In this document: positions 29,411 to 35,764 of the stretch, piece by piece
Layout of the letters: every line of letters starts with the position of its first letter
Position numbering within the stretch: the first letter of the stretch is position 1
Source: Bacteroidota bacterium
Lineage (GTDB): Bacteria > Bacteroidota > Bacteroidia > Bacteroidales > UBA4417
Length of the DNA: 64,000 bases
Assembly: GCA_022711175.1 (NCBI GenBank)
Contig: JAKLFM010000001.1
Coordinates: 1,777 to 65,776, forward strand
Direction of reading: 5' to 3'
The notes under the pieces: model-generated
Seen by the model: the letters and a program-made list of their open reading frames with translations, nothing else
Database searches by the model: none
Told to the model about the DNA's origin: nothing
Translations under genes and position numbers: made by a program

Positions 29411-32400
29411 ATGAAAAAATATCTACACTCTCTGTTGCCTGTAATACTGATGCTGGCATGTTTCAGTGTTTCTGCCCAGGAAAAACCTGAGGCCCTTCCC
29501 GACACTTCTCAATATCCATACTGGATAAAGATGATGCAGGACCCTGATGCCAACTTTTTTCAAACTCAGCGTGCCTTTAATCAATACTGGCAAGGAAGGG
29601 AAATCACCAAAGGCTGTGGATGGAAACCTTTTAAGAGATGGGAAAGCTACATGCAAACGCGTGTATCGCCCGAAGGCGTGAAGCCCGCGCCCGATGCTGT
29701 ATTCAATGCATACAATCAATATATGCAGCAGCACGACCAGGCAACCTCGCTCAACGGCAACTGGGTAAGCCAGGGGCCTTTTTCAATTCCAACAGCCAAA
29801 GGCTACCAGGGCTTGGGGCGAATCAATGCCATTGCTTTCCATCCTACCGATCCTGACATCCTTTACATTGGCGCGCCATCGGGTGGCCTGTGGGTAACTA
29901 CCCAGGGCGGCAATAGCTGGACAACCAATACCGATATACTTCCTACATTAGGAGTATCGGCCATTGCCATCAACCCGGCAAACCCGCAAATCATATATAT
30001 CGGTACCGGCGACCGCGATGCCGGCGATGCACCGGGAATAGGTGTTATGAAAAGCACCGATGGCGGTGTAACCTGGAACCTTGCCAACAGCGGAATGGGC
30101 AGCAAGGTTGTGAGCAAAATGCTCATCGTTACGAGCAATCCTGATATTGTAATTGCTGCCACAACCGGCGGCATGTATAAATCAACCGATGGTGGAGAAA
30201 ACTGGGTGTTCAAGGCAGGCGGTAGTTTCAAGGACTTGGTCTTCAAACCCGGAAACCAGGAAATCTTATATGCTGCAGCTGATGCAAGGTTCTACCGTTC
30301 GACCGACCAGGGCGAAACATGGACCCAGATTACATCGGGAATACCATCCGCATCAAGAGGAGTTATCGGCGTTTCGCCGGCAAATCCCGAAATGGTTTAT
30401 TTTCTGCTTGCTAAGAGTGATAACGGTTTCAAAGGTGTTTACAGGTCGGTTGACGGTGGTTTGAATTTTACTACCCGGTCAACCTCTCCCAACATCATGG
30501 ATTGGTCGTGCGACGGTAGCGGAAGCGGCGGCCAGGCCTGGTATGACCTTTGTATGACTGTTGACCCGCTGGATGCCGATGTGATTTATGCCGGCGGAGT
30601 GAACGTTTGGAAATCAGCGAATGGCGGAACATCCTGGCAAATCAGCGGCCATTGGTACGGAGGTTGCGGTGTTCCGGCAGTACATGCCGATCAGCATGTA
30701 TTTGAAGTGAATCCCCTCAACAACAGGATTTACGTAGGCAACGACGGTGGTATTTACTACACTGAAAATGGCGGCACTAACTGGCCCGAAATCAGCAACG
30801 GGCTTGCCATCAGCCAGACCTACAAACTCGGACAGAGCGCCACTGTTGACGAACGTGTGGTGAATGGTTACCAGGACAATGGCTCGTCGCTGTACGACGC
30901 CGGTTCGTGGTATGCCATCGGTGGCGGCGACGGTATGGAATGCGCCATTGATTATACTAATCCATTGTACAGCTATACAACGGTTTACTACGGTTCCATC
31001 GACAGGCACTACGGACTAAACAACCAGGGCGCTATTGCAGGTAACGGAACCAACGGAATTGATGAAGAAGGCGCCTGGGTTACACCGTTCATTATCGATG
31101 AAAAAGACCCAAATACCATGTTCATTGGTTATAAAAACATATGGCGCAGCCGCAATATCAAAAACTCATCTACCGGGGGAGTTAAGTGGACCAAGATTTC
31201 TACCATTAATACGGGCAATCTTTCGGTTCTTGAACAATCTCCGGTGAACACCGACCTGCTGTATGCCTCCAGCAGTGGCAGTATGTACATCTGTACAAAT
31301 GCCCAGGGAGATGAACCTGCCTGGACAAACATTTCGTCATTCCTTCCATCTGGATCGGAAATTACTGATATTGAAGCACATCCTTTTGAAGAAAACACGC
31401 TTTATATCACCCAATCCGACAATAAAATCTATAAATCAACCGATCGCGGCATCACCTGGACAAATATTACCGGAAGCCTGCCCAGCATCCATTTCAGCGG
31501 GGTGGTTTACTATAAAAACAGTATGGAAGGCTTGTACCTTGCCACCGATGCAGGCGTGTTTTACCGTGATCAATCCATGACCGATTGGATTCCCTTTAAC
31601 AACGGAATGCCAGCCAATGCTAGGGTTACTGAACTCGAGATTTATTACGACCCGGTGAGCGTTGCCAACGACAGGCTGAAAGCTGCAACTTACGGACGCG
31701 GCCTTTGGAAATCGGACATGTATTTCGCCACCCCCGTTACTGATTTTGAAGCCGACAGAACGCTGGTTCCTCCGGGATGCCCGGTCAGTTTCAAAGACCT
31801 CTCGTTTGGTGTGCCTTTCGAGTGGGACTGGACATTTGTGGGAGGTACGCCGGGTACTTCAAACGAAAAAAATCCATCGGGCATAACATACAGCACTCCC
31901 GGCACCTACCTTGTGGAACTGACAACCACGAATACCGCGGGTTCCAATACGCTGACAAAGACAGCTTATATCACGGTAAGCGACACATTAAAGCCCGCTG
32001 CTGACTTTGCTGCCGATCAAAAAGTTTTCTGTTCAGCTGGCGTGACCGTAAAATTCACTGACGAAACAGACTACTGCCCAAACACATGGCAATGGGAATT
32101 CACACCCAATACCGTTTCGTTTGTAAACGGAACCAATGTGAGTTCGCAGAATCCACAGGTAATGTTCAACCAAAACGGCAGCTACACCGTGCAACTGGTG
32201 GTTTCCAATGCCAACGGTTATGATGTGGCCGTTAAGCAGGATTATATCATGGTAGGTGGTTACCCTTTGCCATTCAACGAAGATTTTGAAACCATGCAAT
32301 TTGATACCCGGAGCTGGGTAGTTGAAAATCCCGATATGAGCATTACCTGGGACATCGATACCATTTATGCCAACGGTAACAGCCAGTACGCTGCCCGTAT

Positions 32401-33085
32401 GGATTTCTTTCACTATGCAGCACCTCCCGGCCGACGCGACAGGCTCATTTCGCCTGCCCTCGACTTCAGCGGCATGAACAGCGTTGAGCTCACTTTCGAC
32501 CATGCCTATGCTTCCCGCTTCACCACTTCATCCGATTCACTGATTATTTATGTTTCGGCTGATTGCGGCGAAAACTGGACGCGTGTATTCCAGGCCGGAG
32601 AAAAAGGTCAGGGTACATTTGCCACCACTCCCAAAACTACAACACTGTATGTACCAACTATTGTTGACGACTGGTGCGGAATTGGCTGGGGCAGCCAGTG
32701 TATCTCTGTCGATCTGAGCCCCTGGGCTAATATTACCGGCGTAAAAATCGCACTCGAATCGTATAACCGCTTCAGCAACAACCTGTATATCGACAACCTC
32801 AGCATTGCCCAACCTACGGGAATGATTGCACCGCAAAGCATCGGTGGTATCGCGGTATTTCCAAATCCTGCAAAAGGGTTCGTGACAATAACCTCCGACC
32901 AGCCGCTGGGCAAAACCTCACTGGCAATTGTTGACATGGCAGGCATTATCCGTATCAAAAGAACTGCTGACGGCAATCACGCTATCCATGAAACTCTTGA
33001 CATCCGTGATCTGAACCCGGGCATGTATTTCATCAAGATTGACGCCGAACAGAAATCAATCACCCGCAAGCTTGTAATCAACTAA
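29411..33085 (+). CDS. BNR/Asp-box (sortilin/VPS10-type) beta-propeller protein with PKD domains and T9SS sorting domain
   Basis: It has seven or more Asp-boxes (STDGGVTW, STDGGENW, STDQGETW, SANGGTSW, TENGGTNW, STDRGITW and others) and two PKD-like modules (FKDLSFGVPFEWDWTF..., FTDETDYCPNTWQWEF...). The C-terminus VFPNPAKGFVTITS...GMYFIKI...RKLVIN is a sorting domain. Confidence 0.8.
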   Translation: MKKYLHSLLPVILMLACFSVSAQEKPEALPDTSQYPYWIKMMQDPDANFFQTQRAFNQYWQGREITKGCGWKPFKRWESYMQTRVSPEGVKPAPDAVFNAYNQYMQQHDQATSLNGNWVSQGPFSIPTAKGYQGLGRINAIAFHPTDPDILYIGAPSGGLWVTTQGGNSWTTNTDILPTLGVSAIAINPANPQIIYIGTGDRDAGDAPGIGVMKSTDGGVTWNLANSGMGSKVVSKMLIVTSNPDIVIAATTGGMYKSTDGGENWVFKAGGSFKDLVFKPGNQEILYAAADARFYRSTDQGETWTQITSGIPSASRGVIGVSPANPEMVYFLLAKSDNGFKGVYRSVDGGLNFTTRSTSPNIMDWSCDGSGSGGQAWYDLCMTVDPLDADVIYAGGVNVWKSANGGTSWQISGHWYGGCGVPAVHADQHVFEVNPLNNRIYVGNDGGIYYTENGGTNWPEISNGLAISQTYKLGQSATVDERVVNGYQDNGSSLYDAGSWYAIGGGDGMECAIDYTNPLYSYTTVYYGSIDRHYGLNNQGAIAGNGTNGIDEEGAWVTPFIIDEKDPNTMFIGYKNIWRSRNIKNSSTGGVKWTKISTINTGNLSVLEQSPVNTDLLYASSSGSMYICTNAQGDEPAWTNISSFLPSGSEITDIEAHPFEENTLYITQSDNKIYKSTDRGITWTNITGSLPSIHFSGVVYYKNSMEGLYLATDAGVFYRDQSMTDWIPFNNGMPANARVTELEIYYDPVSVANDRLKAATYGRGLWKSDMYFATPVTDFEADRTLVPPGCPVSFKDLSFGVPFEWDWTFVGGTPGTSNEKNPSGITYSTPGTYLVELTTTNTAGSNTLTKTAYITVSDTLKPAADFAADQKVFCSAGVTVKFTDETDYCPNTWQWEFTPNTVSFVNGTNVSSQNPQVMFNQNGSYTVQLVVSNANGYDVAVKQDYIMVGGYPLPFNEDFETMQFDTRSWVVENPDMSITWDIDTIYANGNSQYAARMDFFHYAAPPGRRDRLISPALDFSGMNSVELTFDHAYASRFTTSSDSLIIYVSADCGENWTRVFQAGEKGQGTFATTPKTTTLYVPTIVDDWCGIGWGSQCISVDLSPWANITGVKIALESYNRFSNNLYIDNLSIAQPTGMIAPQSIGGIAVFPNPAKGFVTITSDQPLGKTSLAIVDMAGIIRIKRTADGNHAIHETLDIRDLNPGMYFIKIDAEQKSITRKLVIN

Positions 33086-33132: not shown

Positions 33133-33139
33133 AATTTTG
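33132..33139 (+). promoter_or_regulatory. putative -7 box TAATTTTG
   Basis: It matches TAnnTTTG and lies 15 nt upstream of the ATG at 33155. This argues against the TTG start at 33137. Confidence 0.35.
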
Positions 33140-33154
33140 AGGCAGATAAAGGCC

Positions 33155-33868
33155 ATGCAAATATTCTATTCACCTGACATTTTGAGCAACACTATTCCTC
33201 AGCAGGTTCAACTGGGTGAGGAAGAATCGGCCCATTGTGTGAGGGTGCTGCGTAAGAAGATTGGGGATACCATCCAGATCACCGACGGGCGGGGAGGTTT
33301 GTTTGAAGCCATAGTGAACAACAATGACCCGAAAAAGTGTCTGGTCACCATTGTTACTGCTTCAGGAGTCCTGCCTCAAAAGCCTTTCAGGTTGCATGTT
33401 GCCGTTGCCCCCACCAAGAACACCGACCGCTTTGAATGGTTCCTTGAAAAAGCTACCGAAATAGGTATTACCGAGATCACTCCAATCATCTGTGAACACT
33501 CGGAACGAACCGTTCTCCGCACCGACCGGCTGCAGAAAGTCCTCATATCGGCCATGAAACAGTCGCTGAACCTGCACCTTCCATTACTGAACGAGCCGGT
33601 TAAACTGGCCGATTTTCTGAAAAGAGAATTTGCAGGACAGAAATTCATCGGCTATGTGGAAGAAAAACAGGAAGTTCTGTTGAATGAACTATATCAAAAA
33701 GGTTCTGACTGTGTTATTCTCATAGGTCCCGAAGGCGATTTCAGTAAGGATGAACTTGAAAAGGCAAAACGAACTGGATTTGAGACAATCAGCCTGGGAA
33801 ATTCGCGTTTAAGAACCGAGACGGCGGCCCTTGTCGCCACCATGACCATCAACTTACTGAACGATTGA
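33155..33868 (+). CDS. rsmE: 16S rRNA (uracil1498-N3)-methyltransferase
   Basis: MQIFYSP...H.VRVLR forms the PUA-like N-terminus. The C-terminal SPOUT knot reads ILIGPEGDFS..E........ISLG.SRLRTETAAL. Confidence 0.85.
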   Translation: MQIFYSPDILSNTIPQQVQLGEEESAHCVRVLRKKIGDTIQITDGRGGLFEAIVNNNDPKKCLVTIVTASGVLPQKPFRLHVAVAPTKNTDRFEWFLEKATEIGITEITPIICEHSERTVLRTDRLQKVLISAMKQSLNLHLPLLNEPVKLADFLKREFAGQKFIGYVEEKQEVLLNELYQKGSDCVILIGPEGDFSKDELEKAKRTGFETISLGNSRLRTETAALVATMTINLLND

Positions 33869-34518
33869 AAATGAAACGATATATCCTACTGGTATTCACA
33901 CTCTTATCACTGACTGCTGGAGCGCAATCCTTCCAGATCGCATTGCTAAAATACAACGGCGGCGGCGACTGGTATGCCAACCCAACCTCGCTTACCAACC
34001 TTATTGATTTTTGCAACAAGAACCTGGGAACCAACATCAGCAAGGATTACGCAACCGTGGATGTGGGCAGTGCCGAGATTTTCGATTATCCTTTTGTGCA
34101 CGTCACCGGGCATGGCAATATCATTTTCAACGACCAGGAAGCGCTAAACCTGAGGAACTACCTGTTGGCCGGCGGTTTCCTGCATATCTCCGACAATTAC
34201 GGCATTGATAAGTTCATCAGGCCGCAGATGAAGAAGTTGTTCCCCGAACTGGATTTTGTTGAACTGCCTTACTCCCACCCTATTTACCACCAGAAATACA
34301 ACTTCCCTAGCGGCCTGCCCAAAATACATGAACATGACAACAAGCCTGCCCAGGGTTTCGGACTGCTATGGGAAGGGAGACTGATCTGTTTTTATGATTA
34401 CGAATGCGACCTTGGCGACGGTTGGGAAGACCCCGACGTGCACAAGGACTCACCTGAAAAACGGTTGAAAGCCTTACAGATGGGGGCGAATATGATACAG
34501 TATGTGTTTACGAAGTAG
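33865..34518 (+). CDS. DUF4159 domain-containing protein
   Basis: It has a signal peptide and the motifs LKYNGGGDWYANPTSL, TGHGNI, GGFLHISDNYG, IHEHD and YECDLGDGWED. I recognise these as the conserved Bacteroidota DUF4159 family. Confidence 0.75.
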   Translation: MKMKRYILLVFTLLSLTAGAQSFQIALLKYNGGGDWYANPTSLTNLIDFCNKNLGTNISKDYATVDVGSAEIFDYPFVHVTGHGNIIFNDQEALNLRNYLLAGGFLHISDNYGIDKFIRPQMKKLFPELDFVELPYSHPIYHQKYNFPSGLPKIHEHDNKPAQGFGLLWEGRLICFYDYECDLGDGWEDPDVHKDSPEKRLKALQMGANMIQYVFTK

Positions 34519-34521
34519 AAG

Positions 34522-34610
34522 TTCCGGTTTCAAGTTTCAAGTTGCAAGTTTCAAGTTGCAGGCACCAGATTACAGCTTCAAGTTTCAAGTACCGGGTGCC
34601 AGGTTTCAGC
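34522..34610. repeat. 7-bp-periodic degenerate tandem array (junction spacer, copy A)
   Basis: It reads TTCCGGT TTCAAGT TTCAAGT TGCAAGT TTCAAGT TGCAGGC ... TCAAGTT TCAAGTA CCGGGTG CCAGGTT, starting directly after the DUF4159 stop. Confidence 0.75.
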
Positions 34611-34654: not shown

Positions 34655-35404
34655 TTAATCAAAAGATTTCTCCTGAACAATATTACCTTTTTCATCAAAC
34701 TTTGTAATTCTTGTTTTTTTTCCACGTTCGTCGTATTCTTCCTGAGAATGAATAACGCCATTTTTATAAGAATCAACGACACTTCTGTAAATACCTTCTT
34801 TAAATGAATATTTTTTCCAGTGATCTTTATTAATCCGCCAAATATCAAGCGTTCCAGTGAACTTATTATTAATCAATACTTTAACAAGCCCATCTATCGC
34901 GCCGTAATAATCATACTGCCATTCGCCCGATGATGTCACCTGGCCACGGTCATTTTTCATTGCGACCTTTAATTCTTTTCCCTCAGAAATAAAAATATCT
35001 TCTTCGTGGTTTTCAATATCCAAATAAGTACTGTCAATCAATCCTTCTGAACTAATGATCTCAAAATGCTTATCAGAAGATCTGGAGTATCGCGTCACTC
35101 TAACCACTTTTGTATTAACATATTCAATCTCTTTACGCAGTCTGCCATCCGGAAAATTTATTTTCCATACACCAATTGGTTGACCATTATCATCAAAATA
35201 GTACTCCTTGTAAATAACATTGTTAGCATTTACATTCTGCCATTTTCCTATTTGCAACCCATTCTTAGTTATCCCCTGTTTTGTAAAACGCAGATATACA
35301 GAGTTATCTTTATTTGTAATCTCCAGCGTTTGAGCATCAATTTTAACATACGAAAGAAGTGCCAGCGCAATGCAAAGCAAGCATCTAAAACATCTGATTC
35401 TCAT
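34655..35404 (-). CDS. MORN-repeat-variant / YwqK-like secreted protein
   Basis: It has a signal peptide and repeated G.W..Y..(D/N)G motifs (YFDDNGQPIGVWKINFPDGRL, KNGVIHSQEEYDERGKK). The gene is markedly AT-rich compared with its flanks. Confidence 0.5.
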   Translation of the reverse strand: MRIRCFRCLLCIALALLSYVKIDAQTLEITNKDNSVYLRFTKQGITKNGLQIGKWQNVNANNVIYKEYYFDDNGQPIGVWKINFPDGRLRKEIEYVNTKVVRVTRYSRSSDKHFEIISSEGLIDSTYLDIENHEEDIFISEGKELKVAMKNDRGQVTSSGEWQYDYYGAIDGLVKVLINNKFTGTLDIWRINKDHWKKYSFKEGIYRSVVDSYKNGVIHSQEEYDERGKKTRITKFDEKGNIVQEKSFD

Positions 35405-35507
35405 GATTGATAGAAATATATCTTTAACAATCGATTAATAAATACAAATATCGAAAAAATAAAATCACATTGAAGAAGGTTCAATGGTAACGCAAATATG
35501 AATCCGG

Positions 35508-35750
35508 TTACTTTCTCATCAAAATCAATTGCTCCTCCAGCACCTTGATCCTTGCTTCGGCATCGGCTTGCTTTTTACGCTCAATTTCAACCACTTCGGG
35601 TTTGGCATTGGCTACGAAGCGCTCGTTTGAAAGCTTCATCATTACACTTTTTAGGAAACCTCTGGTATATTCAAGTTCCTGAGTGAGGCTGACAATTTCA
35701 GCATTAACATCAATCTGTTGTCCTAGCGGAACGTAGAATTCCCTAACAGT
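35508..35750 (-). pseudogene. detached, diverged copy of the valS 3' end (last ~80 codons plus stop)
   Basis: The minus-strand translation is [77 protein letters not shown]. It aligns with the C-terminus of the full valS at 41304-41545. There is no upstream valS sequence and no start codon. Confidence 0.85.
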
Positions 35751-35764
35751 ACTGTTCGGATTTT

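Follow-up and report, generated by a model that had tools for sequence, protein, structure and literature searches.

The 6.8-kb gap between the DUF4159 and valS genes of this Bacteroidota genome contains detached 3′ ends of both flanking genes, and the larger of the valS pieces carries the imprint of purifying selection, groups with the valS of a related lineage, and is continuous with a gene cassette which is threefold less diverged between two species than the genes around it. These observations support the reading of the valS fragment as a donor allele from a related lineage. The best explanation for the locus, which we regard on balance as probable, is that DNA of related lineages was added at a variable locus by homologous recombination at one end and illegitimate recombination at the other.

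In the window, by which we mean the whole stretch of 64,000 nucleotides analysed, the resident DUF4159 gene lies downstream of rsmE and is convergent with valS, and the rsmE/DUF4159/valS synteny is kept genus-wide. The features from one conserved flank to the other are as follows.

33865..34518, plus strand: resident DUF4159 gene, the right-hand conserved flank (Pfam PF13709, E=3.8e-68)
34526..34605, no strand: degenerate 7-nt-repeat spacer beside the DUF4159 stop (repeat family D3)
34655..35404, minus strand: MORN-like gene of 249 aa, cargo of the 'M' cassette (weak MORN_2 match)
35405..35507, minus strand: leader of the MORN-like gene, 103 nt, continuous with the valS fragment (collinear alignment with G017, a genome of the sister species)
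35508..35741, minus strand: detached valS 3′ end, 77 codons plus stop, terminus LILMRK (PF10458, E=9e-11)
35742..35764, minus strand: spacer of 23 nt on the 3′ side of the 539-aa gene, with the 12-nt palindrome AACAGTACTGTT
35765..37384, minus strand: secreted protein of 539 aa with T9SS sorting domain, cargo of the 'T' cassette (PF18962)
37418..40894, minus strand: M43-type metallopeptidase of 1158 aa with T9SS sorting domain, 'T' cargo (PF05572, PF18962)
40895..41047, minus strand: leader of the 1158-aa gene, 153 nt, containing TATCTTTG, which we take to be a match to the Bacteroidota -7 promoter box TAnnTTTG
41048..41111, minus strand: 64-nt valS 3′ end with a 1-nt deletion, terminus ITALK plus stop (repeats D4, D7, D8)
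41104..41236, plus strand: detached DUF4159 3′ end, 42 codons plus stop from 41108 (repeat D2)
41237..41303, no strand: second copy of the 7-nt-repeat spacer, from the DUF4159 fragment to the valS stop (repeat family D3)
41304..43958, minus strand: resident valS, 884 aa, the left-hand conserved flank (Pfam tRNA-synt_1, Anticodon_1, Val_tRNA-synt_C)

Followed in the direction of valS, the gap reads as three alternative fillings in series, each unit beginning with a valS end. The resident valS end is followed by the repeat spacer and the DUF4159 fragment, which lies antisense, and the three make up an empty-type unit. Then comes the T cassette, with the 64-nt valS end, the 153-nt promoter leader and the 1158-aa and 539-aa genes for two T9SS-secreted proteins. 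After the 23-nt spacer stands the M cassette, with the 234-nt valS end, its 103-nt leader, the MORN-like gene and the repeat spacer which reaches the DUF4159 stop. The 64-nt valS piece is of the resident type, and a single base lost from it (repeat spacing 256 versus 257) has put it out of frame. An assembly or binning chimera is ruled out, as eight contigs of other samples repeat the structure at 99.9-100% identity wherever they overlap the locus; two of the eight cover the 11.2 kb in full, and a third has its ends within valS and within DUF4159. No further copy of the valS or the DUF4159 fragment was present elsewhere in the genome, and no similar fragment in the other sampled genus members except a valS stub in G017. 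The 7-nt-repeat spacer itself is a dispersed intergenic repeat family; similar arrays (with units such as GGAACTT, GAAACTT, GGCACCC) recur at many sites of this genome, among them contigs C181, C158, C19 and C154, and in most members of the genus.

The joints of the cassettes are short. At 35741-35744 the spacer which follows the 539-aa gene switches to valS sequence at GAAT; by eye, about 22 of 27 positions of this spacer match its counterpart in G018, a genome described below. The preliminary description had given the valS fragment as 35508-35750, which is nearly right; the valS homology (minus strand) ends at 35741, and the remaining 9 bases up to 35750 belong to the spacer that follows the upstream gene. 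The 64-nt valS piece shares the 8 nt CTGCTTTT (41104-41111) with the DUF4159 fragment fused to it, and both parents have this motif, as CTGCTTTT in valS and as CTGTTTTT in DUF4159. With microhomologies of 4-8 nt (4-5 nt at GAAT, 8 nt at CTGCTTTT), these joints are illegitimate, as judged from their sequence. Integrase, excisionase and transposase were absent from the Pfam scan of the window genes at 33137-34518, 34655-43958 and 44027-46, and neither a tRNA nor an Rfam match lay near the locus, so that known RNAs which could serve as integration targets were not found. The 4-8 nt microhomologies, together with the lack of an integrase and of a tRNA, make one-ended homologous plus illegitimate recombination the best mechanism for this locus. 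The preliminary description had proposed that the flank ends arrived with the cargo by homologous recombination or transformation. Arrival with the cargo agrees with the joining of the valS piece to a recently exchanged cassette; the homologous part needs amendment, since a double crossover would leave no duplicated ends and the joints are illegitimate. The perfect 12-nt palindrome AACAGTACTGTT at 35745-35756 directly adjoins one illegitimate joint and is imperfect in G018; it might act as a small terminator stem, or else form a hairpin prone to breakage.

A single crossover would give the same topology of duplicated ends if the cassette had been a circle carrying a segment with the valS end and the DUF4159 end, inserted in the manner of Campbell so that the homology became duplicated. 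The valS fragment and the resident gene share an identical core of 44 nt (alignment read by eye), which is probably long enough for RecA-type exchange, and the foreign affinity of the fragment fits such an insertion equally well. However, the left ends of the valS pieces differ (64 and 234 nt here, 66 nt in G017) and lie at microhomologies with unrelated sequence, which argues for an illegitimate joint and not a crossover within homology. Also, functions for replication or circularisation are not encoded. We consider insertion of a circle improbable.

We then turn to the selection signature of the valS fragment, which the preliminary description had seen as an open 77-residue frame with its own stop, with roughly 60 of 77 residues matching the resident valS and with many third-codon differences. 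All three observations hold. The fragment has 77 sense codons and a TAA, with no stop and no indel; against the end of the resident valS (41304-41534), 62 of 76 residues and 177 of 228 bases match, and the 51 differences fall at codon positions 1, 2 and 3 in the numbers 11, 7 and 33. The codon-aware comparison gave dN=0.135 and dS=1.10 and hence dN/dS=0.12 (Nei-Gojobori), while true orthologue pairs over the same valS segment gave 0.06-0.07. As the preliminary description argued, a dead copy should change without regard to codon position. If 51 differences hit such a copy at random, about 32 residue changes are expected, and 14 were observed; in a simulation of neutral decay none of 20000 runs ended with 15 or fewer residue changes, so the random-hit model is rejected. 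A low pairwise dN/dS is nevertheless not enough on its own, and branch-specific counts with outgroups are needed. Since half of the pairwise distance belongs to the resident gene, which is still under selection, the changes were polarised. On the fragment's own branch, after its node with X1 (a syntenic metagenome contig with the order valS, 207-aa gene, DUF4159, rsmE), there are 17 changes in codons 1-71, distributed 3/2/12 over the codon positions (binomial p=0.002), and 10 of the 17 are synonymous. The last six codons of the fragment are scrambled, in a tail which is variable genus-wide.

The affinity of the fragment points in the same direction as its own-branch bias. When it was used as query against 5.8 billion proteins, one full-length valS with 89% identity was found, on X1. 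Over the first 70 codons (210 nt) the fragment is 88.1% identical to X1, 81.4% to the resident gene, 80.5% to G017 and 78.6% to G012, another genome of the genus, and in a maximum-likelihood tree fragment and X1 valS form a clade with support 97/91. Forcing the fragment together with the resident was not rejected by the AU test (lnL difference 16.8, p=0.144), because the alignment has 231 columns only. At 4-fold sites the fragment differs from X1 at 11 of 27 and from the resident genes at 11 of 25 to 14 of 27; the 11/27 implies that X1 is a relative of the source and not the source itself. The preliminary description had called for a search for a closer donor allele, and named closest similarity to the resident gene of the same genome, with substitutions distributed at random, as one observation that would speak against import. 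For the valS piece the nearest sequence is that of X1 and not the resident, whereas a near-identical donor was not found among the genus genomes and metagenome proteins, and an intact valS ending in LILMRK and followed by a MORN-like gene was found in no genome. The resident valS is 84-96% identical to that of G017 per 150 nt, through to the stop, and sliding comparison with G017 and G012 revealed no breakpoint in it. As the resident has no breakpoint against G017, it looks native, and the fragment and its cassette look imported.

The smaller DUF4159 fragment at 41108-41236 (plus strand, 42 codons and stop) shows a similar pattern of differences and a different affinity. It differs from the resident gene at 14 of 126 bases (codon positions 3/2/9), with a dN/dS of 0.075 and four residue changes, all conservative. 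This bears out the preliminary counts of about 15 mismatches in 132 nt with 4 changes in 43 codons and their mostly synonymous nature, 9 of the 14 differences being at codon position 3, and for neither fragment is dN/dS near 1 (0.12 and 0.075). The divergence of both pieces bears the mark of purifying selection. However, the donor-allele reading which the preliminary description extended to both fragments is carried by the valS piece, through its X1 clade (97/91), its own-branch bias (p=0.002) and the young cassette linked to it, and finds no such support in the DUF4159 piece, which is without a closer relative. The latter is equidistant, in a star-like manner, from the genome under study (G000), G017, G018 and X1 (13-15 differences in 126 nt), and this is the same distance that separates these orthologues among themselves. 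A fragment as distant as orthologues are from one another did not arise by recent copying of the resident end; from its sequence it could equally be a donor end or a displaced native end. In the last 126 nt of the resident DUF4159 gene G000 and X1 have 11 differences and G000 and G017 have 14, while the rest of the gene shows the opposite order, a weak hint that the resident 3′ end may be foreign, in numbers too small to be significant.

Evidence that cassette material moved between species comes from the MORN-like gene. G017 has the order valS, 47-nt repeat spacer, 66-nt stub, the same leader (35405..35507 here), MORN-like gene, spacer and DUF4159, and its stub consists of 66 nt of the same LILMRK-type valS end, with three in-frame stops and a left joint which differs from that in G000. 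Between G000 and G017 the dS of the MORN-like gene is 0.17, as against 0.62 for valS, 0.63 for DUF4159 and 0.54 for rsmE; at 4-fold sites the MORN-like gene has 8 differences in 72 and the flanking housekeeping genes 181 in 540 (Fisher p=6e-5), which makes the cassette threefold less diverged than its flanks. This low divergence implies that the cassette and its valS-end prefix share a more recent ancestor than the host genomes do, and hence that the M cassette was exchanged between species after speciation. In G017 it may either have entered separately or be a copy later shortened by deletion. In a sliding comparison the G000-G017 similarity drops at the repeat spacer 34526-34605, with a 40-nt indel, so that the recently shared stretch stops at the 7-nt-repeat spacer near DUF4159. 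The search for a donor of the M cassette led to the 1.5-kb contig P0122, on which a 69% identical MORN gene is preceded, at a distance of 105 nt, by a 47-aa gene end. It may be noted that the MORN-like gene has a dN/dS of about 0.32 between G000 and G017, that its family is very rare, 5.8 billion proteins yielding four clusters at E<=1e-20, and that one source labels a member as of 'antitoxin YwqK' type.

These results also bear on an old local tandem duplication, in which slippage or unequal exchange at CTGYTTTT would have copied, in an ancestor, the segment from the valS end to the DUF4159 end, the copies diverged in place, and cargo was gained or lost between them later. The joint at which the DUF4159 fragment meets the 64-nt valS piece has exactly such a topology and microhomology, the pairwise dN/dS would be lowered in part by synonymous change in the functional resident, and the AU test (p=0.144) leaves room for fragment and resident as sisters. 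Against it stand the third-position bias on the fragment's own branch (3/2/12) and the grouping of the fragment with X1 and not with the resident, both of which are also the opposite of what a recent tandem duplication should leave in the valS piece. Moreover, the cargo differs among the three units and the M cassette is threefold less diverged between species than the flanks, and a copy already dead before the split of G000 and G017 is expected to carry far more replacements and probably stops, like the G017 stub. Taken together, duplication in place appears distinctly unlikely to us.

The T cassette has its counterpart in G018, where both T9SS genes lie directly beside DUF4159 and a 68% identical orthologue of the 539-aa gene directly adjoins it. 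The G018 arrangement is a plausible donor-type allele for the T cassette; its contig breaks inside the 1158-aa gene, and the valS end is unassembled. The nearest relatives of the 1158-aa gene elsewhere reach at most 51% identity in the genus and at most 34% in metagenome contigs, and a close donor of the T cassette was not found in the genus genomes and metagenome contigs, which held distant relatives only. G012 conserves the core of the leader of the 1158-aa gene (40930-40986) behind its MORN gene. There, at L039 11033-11421, the conserved promoter leader directly follows the MORN-like gene and precedes a 101-aa ORF which matches only the C-terminal sorting-domain region; this ORF looks like what an internal deletion has left of a T-type gene. 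The content of the gap varies across the genus: it is empty in G002 and G020, and holds a 439+387-aa pair in most of the genus, the MORN gene in G017, MORN and two others in G012, the two T9SS genes in G018 and the 207-aa gene in X1. The 439-aa and 387-aa pair, seen at L069 and L071-L077 in the deeper genus, is conserved and mostly on the DUF4159 strand.

On the reading that we prefer, one-ended homologous plus illegitimate recombination, each cassette would have entered as linear DNA from a related lineage in which it lay directly downstream of valS, and for this reason a variable length of the donor valS end would have been carried along. One end of the DNA would have recombined homologously, on the spacer/DUF4159 side, and the other would have been joined illegitimately at microhomology, a process which would be homology-facilitated illegitimate recombination or a close equivalent. 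The ancestor of G000 and G017 would have had the empty arrangement still seen in G002 and G020. Into it a G018-type piece would have come, reaching from 64 nt inside a donor valS via the two T9SS genes into DUF4159, with its homologous anchor on the side of DUF4159 and the opposite end attached at CTGYTTTT, 133 nt within the recipient DUF4159, whereby one DUF4159 end was presumably cut off. A later, X1-related piece, from 234 nt inside valS through the MORN-like gene, would have been joined at GAAT just after the 539-aa gene and recombined on its other side near the repeat spacer. The valS fragment would then have been under purifying selection within a working donor valS, with little decay since. 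We infer the order of these events, the side of the homologous anchor and the route of DNA entry; to our knowledge, natural transformation is not established for this bacterial group.

The in-frame state of the gene-end copies admits of a further thought, a long shot, that they are portable recombination handles of a cassette array free of any recombinase. If this were true, the resident valS end and the fragment would exchange over the 44-nt core, so that the T cassette looped out as a circle and the M cassette was left fused to a hybrid, still functional valS. The shedding and circularisation of cassettes, and their re-insertion elsewhere in other cells, could then proceed by simple homologous recombination, and the open frame of the fragment would keep all deletion products viable.

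Still less credit is due to the proposal that the valS fragment was retained for use, either as a 44-aa coiled-coil ORF (35508-35642) or within the promoter or leader that serves the MORN-like gene. It could draw on the 77 codons without stop or indel, on the third-position bias of the fragment branch, on public annotations which call a 44-aa gene with a Val_tRNA-synt_C hit, and on a comparison by eye over 51 nt in which the G000 copy has fewer derived changes than the G017 stub, about 5 of the 8 differences having arisen in G017 and none clearly in G000. However, most of the fragment is lost in G017, where the remainder has three stops, and selection in the donor accounts for the bias. A frame hit by 25 random changes stays free of stops with a chance of about 0.4, which makes the open frame of the valS fragment uninformative when taken alone. 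In the identical public contigs the last 44 codons of the fragment, 35508-35642 on the minus strand, are annotated as a gene, and this call is most likely an annotation artefact of a relic. A site-specific integrative element which targets the valS 3′ end and brings a replacement end could explain that each cassette begins with a valS end and that two left ends lie within about 10 nt in valS (64 nt in G000, 66 nt in G017), but it is scarcely credible with no integrase, excisionase or transposase among the scanned genes and no tRNA, repeats of unequal lengths and 82-87% identity, and cargo consisting of ordinary secreted proteins.

The process closest to our preferred reading, homology-facilitated illegitimate recombination, was defined by experiment in naturally transformable Acinetobacter, Streptococcus pneumoniae and Pseudomonas stutzeri (de Vries & Wackernagel 2002; Prudhomme et al. 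2002; Meier & Wackernagel 2003), with typical microhomologies of 3-10 bp according to PMC6382021. The locus resembles it in foreign DNA, beside what would be a homologous anchor, a joint within that range of microhomology, and no need for mobility genes. The joints here are of short microhomology, and the insert is foreign to the recipient by its X1 clade (with AU p=0.144 for the alternative) and by the 8/72 differences of the MORN-like gene. Unlike in those experiments, the process is read here from scars in the genome of an uncultured Bacteroidota, with anchor, RecA dependence and uptake route presumed, and the one locus seems to have accumulated three events, one upon another. The minimal mobile elements of Neisseria (Saunders & Snyder 2002; Snyder et al. 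2007; see PMC3787668) are alike in having variable genes between fixed flanks, no mobility genes and an exchange ascribed to recombination. They swap their fillings by crossovers in both flanks, without duplicated gene ends, whereas here the fillings were added serially with truncated flank ends at the joints; in place of replacement through both flanks we found stacked fillings, illegitimate joints and a valS without breakpoint. Islands which tyrosine recombinases insert at gene 3′ ends share with this locus a duplicated gene end at the border and an intact gene completed by one copy, but here the integrase is absent, the repeats are non-identical and the joints lie at microhomology with unrelated sequence. 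An integrase-driven island is ruled out by the lack of a recombinase among the scanned genes and by the unequal, 82-87% identical repeats.

The locus is thus a well-documented natural example of an already known process, and no new mechanism emerges from it. Its value is that it records, base by base, the addition of secreted-protein genes to a chromosome without mobile-element machinery, by a one-ended recombination which is hardly described in Bacteroidota. The gene-end relics serve as tags for a cassette's lineage of origin, and they show the same MORN-like cassette in two species with different left joints. A similar signal may lie close by, where a 1224-aa PKD/T9SS protein (29411-33085) adjoins rsmE. 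Between G000 and G017 its dN is 0.157 with saturated dS, and between G017 and X1 its dN is 0.073, while the neighbouring genes show the opposite pattern; this suggests a second allele replacement near the locus.
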